Shown one piece after another: positions 7,828 through 59,493 of a DNA stretch of 64,000 nt. This DNA comes from a virus (lineage: Duplodnaviria > Heunggongvirae > Uroviricota > Caudoviricetes): the IMG/VR virus record IMGVR_UViG_3300034157_000063; one strand, written 5' to 3'. Within the stretch, counting starts at the first letter, position 1. The number at the start of each line of letters is the position of its first letter. The notes under the pieces were generated by a model. The model was given only the letters and a program-made list of their open reading frames with translations. It had not been told where the DNA came from and did not search any database. The position numbers and the translations under genes were made by a program.

Positions 7828-8430
7828 TTAGATGGATGCCATATCAAATATGCTCATTAGCTTGTCAAATTCTTCTTTATTTAAATTTTTGATATATTCT
7901 TCTGAGCATTCTATTTCTATCTTATTAAATGACGTTAACAAAAGATCATATATATTTTTAAAATGATAAGGTTTTTTGTTGGCATGAAGATAACTATAAC
8001 ATTTATCCTTTTTCAAAAAGTTAAAGACTCCGGTGGCCGGAACGATTGAAAAAGTTATATCTATTATTAACCGTTCTATCCATGTCTTTTTATTGTTTGG
8101 ATTTAAATTGTTATAATGATATATTTGATTTGATTCTTCAGTTTGAAACTTATAGACTTGCTCTTTTAATCGCATAATTTTATACATTTCTAATTTTAAA
8201 TCGCAATCATTTATAAATACCTTATTTAAATCTTCAATATTAAATTTTAGAATCTCTCCCAAGTCGATGACACTGTTATTTTCTATATTTTTAATTTGAG
8301 CATAAATATATTTGATTGAAAAATCATCTGGCTTATATCTTTCTACTAGATCAAGAAAGGCCATGTAGTCAATAGAATACACATCATTTAATTTTTTTAT
8401 TAGTTTTTTGCTTATGTTGTAGTTTGACAT
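7828..8430 (-). CDS. Hypothetical protein, MxxI-tail family
   Basis: 200 aa; GGAGG SD; ends IFDMASI. Confidence 0.8.
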   Translation of the reverse strand: MSNYNISKKLIKKLNDVYSIDYMAFLDLVERYKPDDFSIKYIYAQIKNIENNSVIDLGEILKFNIEDLNKVFINDCDLKLEMYKIMRLKEQVYKFQTEESNQIYHYNNLNPNNKKTWIERLIIDITFSIVPATGVFNFLKKDKCYSYLHANKKPYHFKNIYDLLLTSFNKIEIECSEEYIKNLNKEEFDKLMSIFDMASI

Positions 8431-27105: not shown

Positions 27106-27980
27106 TTATCGAAACATACAAAGACCATTCCAGATTATATGAATTGGACTTTCATATAAATTCATCTGTCAAAAGTCCTGACGATACAACTCTGTTTACC
27201 ACATCTGGTATGCAACAATTTAAACCCTTATATTCTAATCTAGAATACACCAACACATTTACCAACATCCAGCAATGTCTAAGAATTAATGATCTAGACG
27301 AAATAGGCGATGGCACACACTTTTTAAAATTTGAAATGATAGGTTTATTTTCATTTAGACAATGGACACTTAAACAAGCTATTGATTTCATGTATTCCTT
27401 TGTTAACAAGCTGGGTATTATTCCAGACTATGTAACTATTCACCCTGATAAATATGAAGACTGGAAAGACCTTTATTCTGAATATGGCGTTGAAATACGT
27501 TTAGATCCTGAATGTGTCTGGTCAGATGGTAGTATTGGTGGATATTGCACAGAGTTTTACAAGAACGATGTTGAGATAGGGAATATTGTGAATACAATGG
27601 ATACTTGCATAGATGTGGGTTTTGGACTTGAAAGACTGCTTGAAGTGACTGGAAGCTTAAGACCGAAAAGTAAGCTTCAAATCCTTGAAGAAACTGCTTT
27701 ATTATTGATAGACGATGGTGTATTACTTGGTCACAATAAGAAAGAATACATTTTGAAAAAACTAATCACTGAATCTATTTTTCATGGTAGTCAAATAAGT
27801 AATGAATTTTTTGATCGAATTCGTTTCAATCAAGAAAAAGCTTATTCTACTTATATGAGGAAAAGAAACCATAAACGCTTTAAAGATAAAGATTCCATTT
27901 TCTGGATGGATACCTATGGTTTTAATATTAGTCGAATGGATGAATATGTATCAGTGTTTGGAAAAAAAGAAGACTCGTAA
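27082..27980 (+). CDS. Alanyl-tRNA synthetase-like protein, catalytic core only (no editing or C-Ala domain); probably expressed by -1 frameshift from the leader
   Basis: DDTTLFTTSGMQQFK, QQCLRINDL...HFLKFEMIGLFSF, YCTEFY, VEIGNIV, IDVGFGLERL match class II AlaRS motifs 1-3. The frame is open upstream of TTG 27144 back to 27069. Confidence 0.88.
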
Positions 27981-33690: not shown

Positions 33691-33720
33691 GAAGCCATGA
33701 CTTTTGTTGTGGCTTTTTTT
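33691..33720 (+). terminator. Intrinsic terminator
   Basis: AAGCCATGAC-tttt-GTTGTGGCTT followed by T-tract. Confidence 0.7.
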
Positions 33721-33774
33721 GTTTACAGCATTAAGGTGTTGTGCTATAATTGTTCAAATTTTAGGAGAGATAAC

Positions 33775-34620
33775 ATGAATACGATTGATTTTGTGCAACA
33801 AGGAAATAAGCGTAAGAAAGCCTTTGTTGTAGATACCTTTGCTCGTAAAGTGCTTAATGACATTTTTCCTGTTATCAACGATCTTTCTAATAATGATATT
33901 CATGTTATCAATTATGTTGTTTTTCGTGGTAAACGTCTCATTGATGTTATTGTTCGTTATAAAGATCTTTGCTTGCCTATGGCTCTTGATTTCTCCATTG
34001 ACAGTGATTTAGATTGCACATACATTAAAGGCTACAGGGCTATTTATAAGTTTAATATTTCTATTGTTAATGACCGATTCCAAAGTATTCTGTTTGATGA
34101 CAATCGTGAAGATAACTTCAACGTTGAAACACTTAAAGAATTTTTAGGGGATGACGCGGAACGTTTTAGCATTCTGTATGACAGTTATTACAATAAATAT
34201 AACTCACCCATGCAGTATAAGCAGCATGTATTGAAAGCCACCGCTCCTGATGCTAAACCAACATCTGATATTTCTTTTGATTGTGAGTTTCAATACATGA
34301 GCGATACATCAGGATTCTTTTTTAATATTTATAGCAATGGTATTGAATATAAGAAGAATGTAGCGAGAGTGGAAGAACTGTGTTATCAATTGAAACCAAT
34401 GGAAGGCACTATCTCGGGTAAGTTCACCAGTATTGATTTTTGGTCAACTATTAAAGAAAACCCTTCTATGATTTCTGAACCTTTTAGGGTTGCCATTCAG
34501 AAACATTACAATGTGGATGATTATGTTATTCCTCATTTTGATTCTCATATTGAATTGTTTGATTTTTACAATGAAGAAAAAATACGAATTAAGGAAATCA
34601 GTGAAATGATAAAAATTTAA
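33775..34620 (+). CDS. Hypothetical protein, MxxI-tail family
   Basis: ATG 33775 after AGGAG; ends ISEMIKI. Confidence 0.8.
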   Translation: MNTIDFVQQGNKRKKAFVVDTFARKVLNDIFPVINDLSNNDIHVINYVVFRGKRLIDVIVRYKDLCLPMALDFSIDSDLDCTYIKGYRAIYKFNISIVNDRFQSILFDDNREDNFNVETLKEFLGDDAERFSILYDSYYNKYNSPMQYKQHVLKATAPDAKPTSDISFDCEFQYMSDTSGFFFNIYSNGIEYKKNVARVEELCYQLKPMEGTISGKFTSIDFWSTIKENPSMISEPFRVAIQKHYNVDDYVIPHFDSHIELFDFYNEEKIRIKEISEMIKI

Positions 34621-47423: not shown

Positions 47424-47455
47424 AATAAAAAACCATCATGAGATGGTTTTTATTT
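47424..47455. terminator. Bidirectional terminator; copy 1 of a direct repeat flanking argS
   Basis: AATAAAAAACCATCATGAGATGGTTTTTATTT. Confidence 0.8.
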
Positions 47456-47474: not shown

Positions 47475-49151
47475 TTATTTATTTTCAACCGTCATCTTTG
47501 ATAAACATGGATAGGTTTCAATACCTAAGATATTACAGCCTTTCTCAATGACATCCTTCACTGCCGCGATCAAACATAATTTCTTATACTCTTCTTCATG
47601 TCCCAATATTTTTTCACTTTCGTAATATTTGTGGAATAAAGTACATAAGCTGACTAGTTGAGTGGTTAAATAATGACTTTGATACTCAGTACTCATTTCA
47701 TTGATAATCTCTTGAGTTTTCAAAATATTAAAGAATAAAGCATTTTCCTGATTATTTAAAATCAGATCATCAGTGATGGTCAATTTAGGTTCATTCATAT
47801 TGTATTTCTTAAACAAAATTGAATCAATCCGCACATAAGCATTTTGAAGATAAGGAGCTGAACCACCAGAAAAGTTTAAGACATGTTTCCAGTCAAACAC
47901 ATAATCTTGATGCTTGCTTAATTTTAAATCATGAAATTTAAGACCACCTACAATCGTTTTATTCAACAACTCAGTTTGTGTCTCACCTGAAAGCTTTGTA
48001 AAGTGTGGAGACTTTAATAATTCATTTTTACCTTCCATTAACAAATCATCCAAATACAATGATTTTCCTGTTTTTGTTTTGATAGGTTTGTTATCTTCAC
48101 CTAAGATGGTACCGAAACCCAAATGGATAAGCTTATTTTTATCGGTTGCATAACCTACTTTTTTAGCAATCATGAAGATTGTTTCAAAATGCAGTGACTG
48201 CCGTTTATCAACCACATACACTATTTTATCTGGGTTATGTTGTTCTACCCGCCATTTGATAGCCGCTAAATCATAGAGAGCATACAAAAAGGTGCCATTC
48301 GTTTTTTTGATGACCAGCTTGTTATTTTCAAGTTGAACATACACCGAACCATTCTCATCAACACTGGCAATTTGTTTATTGATTAAGTCCACAACGATTT
48401 CATGACAGAACTGAGCAAAGAAGCTTTCACCTTTGGTATCCGCAATGGTCAATTTGAGCTTAAATTCTTTAATTGTAGATTCTAGGTCAATCAAACTAAT
48501 ATCGACACATTTTTGCCATAATGCTAGCAATTCATCATCAAGTTTATTTTGAAGCTTGTACGCAACATTATCAGATTCAAGTGCAAATGAATTATCATCA
48601 CTTTCTTTGGATAGGTTATAGGCAGTATAGGCGAGCTTATAATACTCAGTGAGCTTTTGATTGTCCAAGTTGTTTGCTAAATCATTCTTCATAATGTAAT
48701 TGAGTAGGAAACCAAACTGATTGCCCCAATCACCAACATGATTATATGAAATAACTTCATCACCCATGTTCTGATGGCTCCGAACAACAAAGTCGCCAAT
48801 AAACATAGACCGTATATGACCGATGTGCATTTTTTTTGCAACGTTAACACCACAGTAATCGACCACCACTGTTTCTTTTGGTTTTGTTTGCACTGTTTGT
48901 GCATTCATTAAATTCATTTTGAAAGACAAAAAAGCCTTACCCGTAATTTCAATGTTTTCGTAATGAGTTGTTTTCAATAAATAAGCAATCAAGCTGGCTG
49001 TGTCAAAGTCGCCTTTTTTATTTAATTGAAAAAGAATAGATGTTTGATAATGAAAATTTTCAAAACTTGAATACGATACATCAACCGTTAACGTGATGTT
49101 TTTTGATGTCAGATAATTTTGGATATCCGATTTAATAATGGACTTGTACAT
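47475..49151 (-). CDS. argS: Arginyl-tRNA synthetase
   Basis: VVVDY...NVAKKMHIGHIRS (HIGH), NHVGDWGNQFG, YVVDKRQSLHF, KTKTG, PYLQNAYVRI (DALR domain); 558 aa. Confidence 0.95.
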   Translation of the reverse strand: MYKSIIKSDIQNYLTSKNITLTVDVSYSSFENFHYQTSILFQLNKKGDFDTASLIAYLLKTTHYENIEITGKAFLSFKMNLMNAQTVQTKPKETVVVDYCGVNVAKKMHIGHIRSMFIGDFVVRSHQNMGDEVISYNHVGDWGNQFGFLLNYIMKNDLANNLDNQKLTEYYKLAYTAYNLSKESDDNSFALESDNVAYKLQNKLDDELLALWQKCVDISLIDLESTIKEFKLKLTIADTKGESFFAQFCHEIVVDLINKQIASVDENGSVYVQLENNKLVIKKTNGTFLYALYDLAAIKWRVEQHNPDKIVYVVDKRQSLHFETIFMIAKKVGYATDKNKLIHLGFGTILGEDNKPIKTKTGKSLYLDDLLMEGKNELLKSPHFTKLSGETQTELLNKTIVGGLKFHDLKLSKHQDYVFDWKHVLNFSGGSAPYLQNAYVRIDSILFKKYNMNEPKLTITDDLILNNQENALFFNILKTQEIINEMSTEYQSHYLTTQLVSLCTLFHKYYESEKILGHEEEYKKLCLIAAVKDVIEKGCNILGIETYPCLSKMTVENK

Positions 49152-49205
49152 ATTGAAGCTCCTTTTAATTATATAAAAAATAGTAATGGTTAATTTTTGA
49201 TTTAA

Positions 49206-49235
49206 TTAAAGTCGTCTCAATAGTTTAGTGTTCAT
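49206..49235 (-). CDS. Leader peptide MNTKLLRRL upstream of argS
   Basis: GGAG SD; ATG AAC ACT AAA CTA TTG AGA CGA CTT TAA; lies between promoter and argS. Confidence 0.75.
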   Translation of the reverse strand: MNTKLLRRL

Positions 49236-49259
49236 TATTTTTTCTCCGATTAGTGGTCT

Positions 49260-49289
49260 ATATTAACATAAATAACCCAATGATGTCAA
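49260..49289 (-). promoter_or_regulatory. Sigma70-type promoter of leader-argS
   Basis: TTGACA-18 nt-TAATAT with TG extension. Confidence 0.7.
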
Positions 49290-49320
49290 TAAAAAAACCA
49301 TCATGAGATGGTCTTTATTT
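49288..49320. terminator. Terminator; copy 2 of the direct repeat flanking argS
   Basis: AATAAAAAAACCATCATGAGATGGTCTTTATTT. Confidence 0.8.
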
Positions 49321-49321
49321 T

Positions 49322-50386
49322 TTAACTAACTTTCTGTTTTATGCGAGAGGTTGTTTCATTGATAAATTTCTCTTTCATCTCAGCAATATTAGAAGGCTTC
49401 TTTTCCATCATCGTTTGTATTGATTTTAAGTCTTTCACATCAATATTCAAATCTTGTGCAACTTTGTTCATGTGACGTTCCGCATCAAGCTCTAAGGCTC
49501 TTTCATTTCTTCCAGTTTGAGCAAAGCCTGCTTTTTTAATAGCTTGAATACCAATGTAACCCATTGCTGCTACACTTATTGCAATTCCGCCTGTTGCAAT
49601 AACAGCAGAACTTGCAGCAACCAAACCAGCCGCTGCACCAAATGAACCAAGAGCTGCAACTAATCCGCCATATCCCATTTTATTTTCTGCTTTGATTTGA
49701 TTGCTTTGATTTTCAAGACCATATAATTTTCTTTTGTACGTGTCAAAGAAGTTTCCAAGGTTTTGACTCAACTCATCAGCCACTGGTGCTTTAAATAGTT
49801 GATTTTTATTTTTACCTTCTGGAAGTTCAGCTCTTTCTACAATGGATTTTACTATTTCGTGAGCTTTCGTCATGTCTCCTTTTTTTACAGCATTTGTGAG
49901 ACTATGCAAATTCATGTGTTCTGAATATGTTTTGTAATCTGTTTGTTTATGAAATTTATCGCTAAATTGTCTTTCGAATTTACTATCTTCAATTTTCATT
50001 CTGTGTTCTTCAAATATCTTACTGGTAATGTCACCTAATTTACTTTCTTGATATTTTGTATACAACTTGCCTATACCTGCATAAGAAAGTCCAGCCATCA
50101 TACCAGCTCCACCACCTAACATAGCGACACCTGCAACAGTAAAACCACCAATTGCAGCCGTTGTAGCGATTGCTGGTATTAATGCGATACTGGCTATACC
50201 GCCTACAACACCTAATAAACCTATACCCAAACCACCCATTGTACCTAATTTTATGTGGCCTTCTGCATTTTTTACCTTAGTCGTAACTTCATCTTTTAAT
50301 CCGACTGTGTGTGAGAAACCATTAACGATATTCATTAATTTTTCTTCTAATTGATCGGCGGTCTTTGCTTTAAATAAGTTCATCAT
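49322..50386 (-). CDS. Glycine-zipper membrane protein with internal duplication
   Basis: LFKAKTADQL / LFKAPVADEL repeats, each followed by a long Gly/Ala-rich hydrophobic hairpin; tail SRIKQKVS. Confidence 0.8.
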   Translation of the reverse strand: MMNLFKAKTADQLEEKLMNIVNGFSHTVGLKDEVTTKVKNAEGHIKLGTMGGLGIGLLGVVGGIASIALIPAIATTAAIGGFTVAGVAMLGGGAGMMAGLSYAGIGKLYTKYQESKLGDITSKIFEEHRMKIEDSKFERQFSDKFHKQTDYKTYSEHMNLHSLTNAVKKGDMTKAHEIVKSIVERAELPEGKNKNQLFKAPVADELSQNLGNFFDTYKRKLYGLENQSNQIKAENKMGYGGLVAALGSFGAAAGLVAASSAVIATGGIAISVAAMGYIGIQAIKKAGFAQTGRNERALELDAERHMNKVAQDLNIDVKDLKSIQTMMEKKPSNIAEMKEKFINETTSRIKQKVS

Positions 50387-58620: not shown

Positions 58621-59493
58621 ATGCAACTACACGATTACTACAAAAAATATGGACAATCTTTCCTGACTGCGGATGAATTCCTTACGCACTGGGGCGAATC
58701 TGTTCAATTTAAATTAATGGACAATCGTGTCTGTGCCAGTCCACTTTACATTCGCAAGCTTGTCACTGACAAATTAAACTCTTTGTTTAAAATTGATTCA
58801 GTATCTGATGAAATTCATCACAAGATGATGACTGCTTATTTCGAAGCTTTGATTGAATTCAATATTATTCCTTTGGAGACTGAGTTTAAAGATAACTTAC
58901 ACTTTGATTCAGATAAAGTTCGTATTTTCCAGAAAGGATTCCTTAATTTCCGTAGACCAAAAACTTTAGCCTTTCCACATGAGTTTGAGACTCAACACTT
59001 GGTTGATCGGGTTATTTTTAATAATGCCATTTTCATTGATGATAAAAGTCAATACAACTTTTACACCATTATGTCTAATTACGGTAATGGTAATGTTGAT
59101 AATGAGTTCATGAAATTCTCTTATTACATTATTGATGGTGTTTTTCATTTTCAAGCCCCTAAATCAGCAGATAAAATGCAAGTGATTGTTTCTATGCCTG
59201 TTGATGAAATAAATGACCATTATGACCACTTCAAGCAGTTAATAAAGAAAAAATTGTTTACCACCTTTTATGAAAACATCAGTAAAATTGTTTTCAGACG
59301 AGTGTTAGACTTTGACACCTTTAATTCGAAACATTTAGCGGTTTTAATTATGTTGGGTGGTCAACCTATTCGAGAGTTGATGTCGTTTATGGAAGAAAAT
59401 GAGTACTTGAATGATATATTCTCGTTAAACGATGATGAGATCTATGAACTTTACAAAGTTTCTTTAACCACTTTTGAGATGATAAAAATATGA
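58621..59493 (+). CDS. Hypothetical protein, MxxI-tail family
   Basis: Ends TFEMIKI. Confidence 0.8.
   Translation: MQLHDYYKKYGQSFLTADEFLTHWGESVQFKLMDNRVCASPLYIRKLVTDKLNSLFKIDSVSDEIHHKMMTAYFEALIEFNIIPLETEFKDNLHFDSDKVRIFQKGFLNFRRPKTLAFPHEFETQHLVDRVIFNNAIFIDDKSQYNFYTIMSNYGNGNVDNEFMKFSYYIIDGVFHFQAPKSADKMQVIVSMPVDEINDHYDHFKQLIKKKLFTTFYENISKIVFRRVLDFDTFNSKHLAVLIMLGGQPIRELMSFMEENEYLNDIFSLNDDEIYELYKVSLTTFEMIKI

Follow-up and report, generated by a model that had tools for sequence, protein, structure and literature searches.

Locus layout

The DNA analysed here is a 64,000-nt window of the virus record IMGVR_UViG_3300034157_000063, and positions are those of the window unless a locus number is given. 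The subject is argS, an arginine-tRNA ligase gene on the minus strand (47475-49151), together with the short leader open reading frame (ORF) that lies between its promoter and its ribosome-binding site (RBS). The 558-aa product (ArgRS) was identified by a match to TIGR00456 of 302.1 bits against a cut-off of 261.65, which spans residues 6-546 and marks it as a full-length enzyme, and its HIGH region is invariant in the ArgRS family alignment.

Read along the minus strand, the unit begins behind an upstream ORF that ends at 49322 and is followed by a terminator hairpin (49312-49297) with a T-run. A sigma-70-type promoter occupies 49260-49289 (minus strand), with TTGACA at 49289-49284, an 18-nt spacing and a TG-extended TAATAT at 49265-49260 (10 of 12 matches); in the relatives described below, equivalent promoters were seen by eye at the matching place. 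About 10 nt past the likely transcription start lies the Shine-Dalgarno (SD) sequence of the leader, GGAG (49244-49247, minus strand), 8 nt before the leader ATG. The leader ORF itself (49206-49235, minus strand) has nine codons and encodes MNTKLLRRL, with the ATG at 49235-49233, the sense codons AAC ACT AAA CTA TTG AGA CGA CTT and a TAA stop at 49208-49206. Its tandem Arg codons, AGA (49217-49215) and CGA (49214-49212), constitute the proposed stall site (49212-49217, minus strand). A further 54 nt separate the leader stop from the argS ATG (49151-49149), which is preceded by the SD AAGGAG at 49164-49159. An original prediction, made from the letters of this DNA, had described the MNTKLLRRL leader with its AGA CGA pair ahead of argS and the lack of a terminator hairpin between the two; all of these features were located on the minus strand where it had placed them, and no terminator-like site was found on that strand between 49206 and 49151.

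Known leader types were considered and rejected. A classical transcription attenuator of the trpL, hisL or pheM kind has tandem cognate codons, as are present here, and was set aside since its intrinsic terminator is absent. A T-box leader was dismissed after an Rfam scan at E<=10 gave no T-box covariance-model match, and no family came near its threshold. Nor did any of the Rfam amino-acid leaders (Phe, His, Leu, Thr, Trp) reach the gathering threshold; the sole Rfam match, Phe_leader with 18 bits where 55 are required, fell on the upstream terminator, not on the leader. No exact copy of the invariant 10-mer box of the leader occurs elsewhere in the window.

The promoter, leader and argS are bracketed by a 29-nt direct repeat, the two copies of which (47427-47455, after argS, and 49292-49320, after the upstream ORF; neither assigned a strand) are identical at 28 of 29 positions. 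Each carries a bidirectional-looking terminator hairpin, composed in the second copy of an A-run, the stem ACCATC/GATGGT and a T-run. This arrangement suggests that the unit is a cassette.

Predicted pairing of the leader with the argS RBS

The original prediction had named a pairing of CTTTAATTA (49211-49203) with TAATTAAAAGG (49171-49161) as the anti-SD interaction, and had allowed that it might prove too weak to form, being AU-rich. The pairing exists, as 9 bp of A-U, and taken alone it is indeed weak (-3.2 kcal/mol). In the minimum free energy (MFE) fold, however, it is the inner half of a helix of about 20 bp that joins 49224-49203 to 49171-49148 and is worth -10.2 kcal/mol as a duplex; the strand that opposes the RBS is thus longer than had been proposed, and it includes the Arg codons. 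The whole leader folds at -16.5 (z about -2.2 to -2.3).

The 5' arm of this helix (49203-49224, minus strand), recovered in the MFE folds, the RNAalifold consensus and the duplex test, reads CUA UUG AGA CGA CUU UAA UUA, that is, the Leu-Leu-Arg-Arg-Leu codons, the stop and three further nucleotides, so that AGA CGA stands at the centre of the anti-SD strand. The 3' arm (49148-49171, minus strand) runs from UAAUUAAAAGGAG, which is followed by the SD-AUG spacer, to AUGU, and so takes in the argS SD and start codon. The Arg codons lie opposite the argS SD, with CGAC facing GGAG in two G.A mismatches flanked by C-G pairs, and UUGAGA(C) of the leader pairs with the SD-AUG spacer. Between the arms (49173-49201, minus strand) the MFE folds place an apical hairpin made of A-U pairs only and a U-tract; the sequence of this segment diverges among relatives and its length is kept.

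The leader arm forms a better duplex with its own RBS than with 68 of the 69 other RBSs of the window, and the cost of opening the argS RBS, 15.5 kcal/mol, ranks fourth among 69 window genes (median 7.3). The genes that rank above it are at 7828-8430 (23.3 kcal/mol), 33697-34620 (21.1 kcal/mol) and 58621-59493 (16.2 kcal/mol); their starts may be mis-called, or they may carry leader structures of their own. The pairing of leader and RBS is regarded as exceeding chance because of the duplex test, the RBS opening cost and its recurrence in six distinct relatives.

Conservation of the leader and of the helix

DNA of relatives was taken from metagenome assemblies, with ArgRS identities of 97, 87, 74 (three lineages), 66 (two lineages), 57, 56 and 53%. 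The informative relatives came from exact-protein look-ups, the metagenome scan having added few close loci, and a scan of IMG/VR for the leader motif returned seven matches, all of them chance occurrences inside unrelated sequence.

In all lineages down to 66% ArgRS identity (six distinct) a short ORF lies between promoter and argS, with an SD kept 7-10 nt before its start. The encoded peptides are MNTKLLRRL, MNTTLLRRL, MNTQLLRRL, MKNTCLRRR, MNLLRRR and MYIKSLRRN. AGA-CGA is invariant at the nucleotide level in every leader-bearing relative, and the earlier codons, codons 3-4 included, vary both synonymously and non-synonymously. The frame, SD, ATG and stop are kept despite indels, such as a 6-nt in-frame difference in L166, and the distance from leader stop to argS AUG stays at 50-56 nt with a spacer sequence that has diverged almost wholly. 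In L165 and L166 the codon CUU has become CGC, which gives a third Arg codon (AGA-CGA-CGC) and costs two pairs of the helix; a gain of Arg coding at the expense of pairing suggests that Arg coding itself, and not just the bases, has been selected.

Independent MFE folds of seven sequences from six lineages agree on a helix in two parts, one on each side of the SD (z-scores -2.3, -0.9, -3.6, -2.5, -2.3, -2.8 and -4.5), and the RNAalifold consensus is the same helix of leader on RBS. For six of the seven sequences no more than 1 of the 69 other RBSs of the window, and no more than 5 of 300 shuffles, equalled or surpassed the duplex of the leader with its own RBS. Two forms of the SD-AUG spacer were seen, G(C/U)UU(C/U)AA and UCU(C/U)A, each complementary to the local leader, and one compensatory change was found, leader UUG to UUA with spacer C to U. 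The proportion of paired cells is 84% in the helix register and drops to 27-52% when the register is slid. On energy and recurrence the predicted helix is well supported; covariation does not prove it. An outer helix, between the leader RBS and early argS codons, was significant in L166 and L167 only and marginal in L083 and L169, and is not claimed as a general feature.

Two arrangements were seen ahead of argS in more distant relatives. The 53% clade (L086:2290-2500, L087:1440-1652, L175:2290-2500) has a conserved ORF of 32-36 codons, MKN..(L/I)RRR..GKV.G.., with three Arg in mixed codons (CGC AGG AGA or CGC AGG CGA) and a strong terminator after it; it is not called an attenuator here, constrained folds having predicted no antiterminator. 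In the 56% relative (L172:2440-2503 and L173; 1.69-Mb contig) no Arg leader was found at argS, the start of which might be sequestered by a perfect inverted repeat of 9 nt, ATGGTGGTA / TACCACCAT, if the 5' copy is transcribed.

Modelled effect of a stalled ribosome

The original prediction had held that a ribosome stalled at AGA/CGA frees the argS SD, and had proposed folding with and without the ribosome footprint. The ribosome was modelled as covering -12 to +15 relative to the P site, and the cost of opening the argS RBS, defined as -18 to +12, was calculated for the seven sequences. Opening the RBS of the free RNA was predicted to cost 9.4-18.8 kcal/mol, as against 2.9-5.8 kcal/mol with AGA in the A site, 2.8-7.3 kcal/mol with CGA in the A site and 3.1-9.8 kcal/mol with the ribosome on the leader stop codon. 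The modelled footprint reaches along the 5' arm to the leader stop codon when AGA is in the A site and to the end of the arm when CGA is. The stalled ribosome would end about 35-40 nt upstream of the argS SD, and so would not block it. Conservation, folds and the modelled drop in opening cost thus speak for the proposed release of the SD. Opening energy was taken as the measure instead of mean unpaired probability, which for the argS SD barely shifts on stalling, weak local pairings between U-tract and A-tract replacing the main helix.

Since in the model any ribosome on the last leader codons opens the argS site, regulation must rest on dwell time. The leader's own RBS was predicted to cost 1-3 kcal/mol to open in nascent RNA and 5-13 in the full-length fold, and its accessibility in the nascent state would fit a co-transcriptional decision.

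Arginine content of ArgRS and parallel synthetase genes

ArgRS contains 5 Arg in 558 residues (0.9%), the lowest content in the window, where the mean is 3.26% (binomial P=2e-4). The five sites are the alignment-invariant R114, R124, R301, R317 and R441, and all are encoded by CGG (48810-48812, 48780-48782, 48249-48251, 48201-48203 and 47829-47831). Outside argS, CGG is the rarest of the window's Arg codons (17 of 597), so that an all-CGG set would arise by chance with a probability of about 2e-8. The same count disposes of the premise, drawn in the original prediction from enteric bacteria, that the leader codons are rare: AGA is the commonest Arg codon here (226 of the 597) and CGA accounts for 71, and no evidence points to an enteric host. 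Together with CGU, these two are the Arg codons most used by the element.

Depletion of Arg is common to more than 100 homologue clusters, and among 120 homologues listed most have 4-6 Arg; ordinary ArgRS enzymes have 21-50, those of Arsenophonus symbionts included (loci of 15-16% GC). The Arg codon within ArgRS is specific to the lineage, essentially one in each, being all CGG, all CGT or all AGA. Such depletion fits an enzyme that is needed when charged tRNA-Arg is nearly gone. A single-protein search of the genomes of 185,579 bacterial and archaeal species found no relative of this ArgRS; a family-alignment search of the same genomes found relatives at no more than 36% identity, e.g. in Xenorhabdus, Arsenophonus and Planctomycetota/Verrucomicrobiota, and in phage and plasmid collections matches were at most 35%.

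Synthetase-like genes poor in their own amino acid were seen at two further places. In L168, the 57% relative, a ThrRS-like gene (within 175-1532, a span that also takes in its leader) stands two genes upstream of argS; it scores 376 bits against TIGR00418 (cut-off 384), lacks its N-terminal part through truncation, and has 1 Thr in 379 aa, its neighbours having 3-6% Thr. A promoter and the leader MFNNLFTTRTTTTLVKAGAVELLFLKV (234-317), with six Thr codons, are followed by a strong terminator and then by the ThrRS-like gene. The 3' arm of the terminator is repeated within the MFNNLFTTRTTTTLVKAGAVELLFLKV leader, by eye a candidate antiterminator. In sequence the arrangement resembles a Thr attenuator of the trp type placed ahead of a synthetase purged of Thr. 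Within the window, an AlaRS-like ORF at 27144-27980 comprises the N-terminal catalytic part only (TIGR00344, 73 bits), with 3 Ala in 278 residues.

Interpretation and alternative explanations

We propose that the leader senses the supply of charged tRNA-Arg as a ribosome-mediated translational attenuator, a reading to which a probability of about 0.6 is given; stalling, the switch and its physiological trigger are what we infer from the sequence features, their conservation, and the predicted folds and energies. Transcription from the promoter would yield an mRNA that opens with the 9-codon ORF, itself well initiated. Once the RNA is complete, the five sense codons at the end of the leader (CUA UUG AGA CGA CUU), its stop and the next bases would pair with the argS SD, spacer and AUG, and this helix would largely exclude 30S subunits. 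Fast translation and termination of the leader would allow the helix to form. A ribosome waiting at AGA or CGA for charged tRNA-Arg would instead keep the whole 5' arm covered; the argS site, which lies some 50 nt further on, would then stay single-stranded, and ArgRS would be made. The enzyme should still be makeable in a shortage of Arg-tRNA, as it calls for five Arg insertions at one codon, CGG, that is hardly used elsewhere in the element.

By wobble rules AGA and CGA are usually read by different tRNAs (UCU and ICG), and in this way the leader would probe both of the Arg tRNAs important to the element. The separate sensing of two isoacceptors that the original prediction had raised is plausible for the window and does not extend to the family as a whole: in most bacteria CGT shares its tRNA (ICG) with CGA, and the ArgRS genes of L167 and L170 use CGT behind a retained AGA-CGA leader.

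That last observation is one of several that weigh against the proposed attenuator. Two Arg codons make a short sensor beside classical leaders, and family members more distant than 66% have no AGA-CGA leader. The helix is AU-rich and of moderate stability; the MFE z-score of L082 (-0.9) and the duplex score of L166 are unremarkable. Covariation is weak, with one double-sided change and a score that was reached in 147 of 500 shuffles, and the RNAalifold covariation term is unfavourable. Both arms are constrained in other ways, by coding and by the SD, and their complementarity could in part be a by-product. In the model, moreover, the helix is opened to much the same extent whether the ribosome stands at the leader stop or is stalled.

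This last point also favours a constitutive coupling in which translation of the upstream ORF merely unwinds the argS site, output tracks general translation and the Arg codons serve as imperfect anti-SD bases. A ribosome anywhere on the last codons, the stop included, lowers the opening cost to 3-10 kcal/mol, and conservation of AGA-CGA as nucleotides is explicable by a constraint on the RNA. CGAC is, however, a poor complement of GGAG, with its two G.A mismatches, and something like CUCC would be expected of a pure anti-SD; two lineages have gained a third Arg codon while losing pairs; the downstream gene encodes an ArgRS purged of Arg; and the relative L168 combines a Thr leader with a Thr-poor ThrRS. 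Coupling of this kind is considered unlikely. Arg sensing might also act through another output, the stalled ribosome blocking Rho entry or RNase attack on the unstructured spacer, which over 45-50 nt is nearly devoid of G in every relative by eye. As C too is scarce in the spacer (A+U at least about 90%), where rut sites are rich in C, as the spacer is short for Rho loading, and as the conserved pairing of SD and AUG would be left unexplained, this output is held to be quite improbable.

Marginally less credible again is an operator for a trans-acting factor, in which an invariant UUGAGACGAC box would be bound by ArgRS, through tRNA mimicry in the manner of thrS, or by another protein or RNA, the short ORF being incidental. 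The box is nucleotide-invariant, and within it lies ACG, which is the anticodon of tRNA-Arg(ICG) before modification, but no fold presents ACG in a 7-nt loop in a U33-like context; in every predicted fold the box lies inside the helix, and the leader SD, ATG, frame and stop have been kept through indels such as the 6-nt in-frame difference in L166. Least credible is the absence of any regulatory role, the ORF and the pairing both having arisen by chance between genes in AT-rich DNA: AU-rich sequences pair readily at 32% GC, the 9-bp pairing first named amounts to -3.2 kcal/mol by itself and covariation is weak, but ORF, SD, Arg codons, helix and spacing are conserved in six lineages to 66% ArgRS identity, and the duplex and opening energies are outliers among the window's RBSs. 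This reading is disfavoured.

Seen beside the ThrRS and AlaRS parallels, the Arg leader seems to be one case of a recurring design, and this recurrence raises confidence that it senses Arg.

The surrounding element

The window has 32% GC and about 70 ORFs, with SD-like motifs at 45 of 69. Searches of 30 window ORFs against Pfam and PHROGs gave, besides the synthetases, only Peptidase_M3, PcfJ-like and Yip1 matches, and no tRNA genes were found in the 64-kb window. Syntenic copies occur on contigs of up to 1.86 Mb, the length of Ga0308158_10000001. One 53% ArgRS relative is carried by a 180-kb IMG/VR record (L192) that is classed as a provirus, 28% complete; a terminase search of this record was negative, and its 180,000 bases held no tRNA genes. 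A permuted-type transfer-messenger RNA with the tag ANDTNYSLAA was seen in it at L192:4004-4379.

A wider interpretation is offered tentatively, as a possibility with the odds somewhat against it. Very large, ORFan-rich elements with bacterial-type expression signals may carry an emergency translation kit, made up of synthetases (ArgRS, ThrRS and apparently AlaRS) that are each purged of their own amino acid, are makeable after a collapse of charged tRNA and are each gated by a ribosome-stalling sensor of cognate codons. The Arg that remain in ArgRS would be inserted through a single codon and isoacceptor, CGG, CGT or AGA by lineage, which in the window lineage (CGG) is distinct from the codons of the sensor.

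Comparison with known systems

Known controls of synthetase genes are T-boxes, which are usual in Firmicutes, transcription attenuators (pheST, trpRS1) and tRNA-mimic operators, and pheM-pheST of E. coli is a leader-peptide transcription attenuator. In Streptomyces coelicolor the auxiliary synthetase gene trpRS1 is described as under leader-peptide transcription attenuation and induced when charging fails (Vecchione and Sello 2010, cited in PMC4787780), and candidate leader-peptide attenuators of synthetase genes are reported in PMC1262725. In these systems, as proposed here, ribosomes that stall at cognate codons of a short leader determine how much synthetase is made. They work through a terminator and antiterminator, whereas the argS leader has no terminator and its alternative structure targets the SD and AUG. 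In a limited full-text collection, no report turned up of argS under leader-peptide control, or of a synthetase gene whose RBS is the target of a codon-starvation switch.

Direct pairing of cognate codons with an SD is shared with the LEU element before actinobacterial leuA, in which consecutive cognate codons of a candidate leader ORF pair with the downstream SD (PMC1262725). The authors deemed leader attenuation unlikely because mutations of the Leu codons had no effect on regulation (PMC1262725). The LEU element is a pseudoknot, and its target is a biosynthetic gene. Amino-acid biosynthetic enzymes are low in their own amino acid, a modest statistical trend termed cognate bias by Fasani and Savageau (PMC4209129). 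The shared principle is that a protein needed during scarcity of an amino acid has little of it. Here the enzyme is a synthetase, not a biosynthetic enzyme, and the depletion goes down to five invariant Arg in one codon.

If the proposed mechanism is true, the leader would be a very compact sensor of charged tRNA-Arg, of about 100 nt, two codons and one helix, that could be reused as a reporter. An Arg-purged ArgRS with such a leader points to a bootstrapping problem, that of making a charging enzyme without its own product, and the same logic would hold for ThrRS. The presence of this ArgRS family, without close relatives in the genomes searched, on DNA made up almost wholly of unknown genes draws attention to large elements that manipulate aminoacylation and form a class still unexplored.

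The features of translational attenuation are found here as a short ORF that carries its own signal, a predicted sequestration of SD and start, and a footprint that stays off the downstream RBS, the last two being modelled. In cat, cmlA and ermC a leader of about nine codons has its 3' codons in the 5' arm of a stem that hides the RBS of the resistance gene, and a stalled ribosome melts this stem; no terminator is involved. The output logic is the one proposed for argS, including its dependence on dwell time. The stall in those genes needs an antibiotic and a specific nascent peptide, whereas the stall proposed here is one of codon starvation, and ermC uses four segments where the argS leader has a simple two-arm helix.

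The closest match is in mycobacteria, in which ribosomes stalled in short poly-Cys ORFs block structures that sequester the downstream RBS (bioRxiv 10.1101/834739). Like the argS leader, these are short upstream ORFs with codons of the sensed amino acid. They are leaderless and longer, with runs of Cys codons, a very stable duplex and targets in cysteine metabolism; the argS leader is SD-led, has 9 codons with two or three Arg codons among them, forms an AU-rich helix and is directed at a synthetase.

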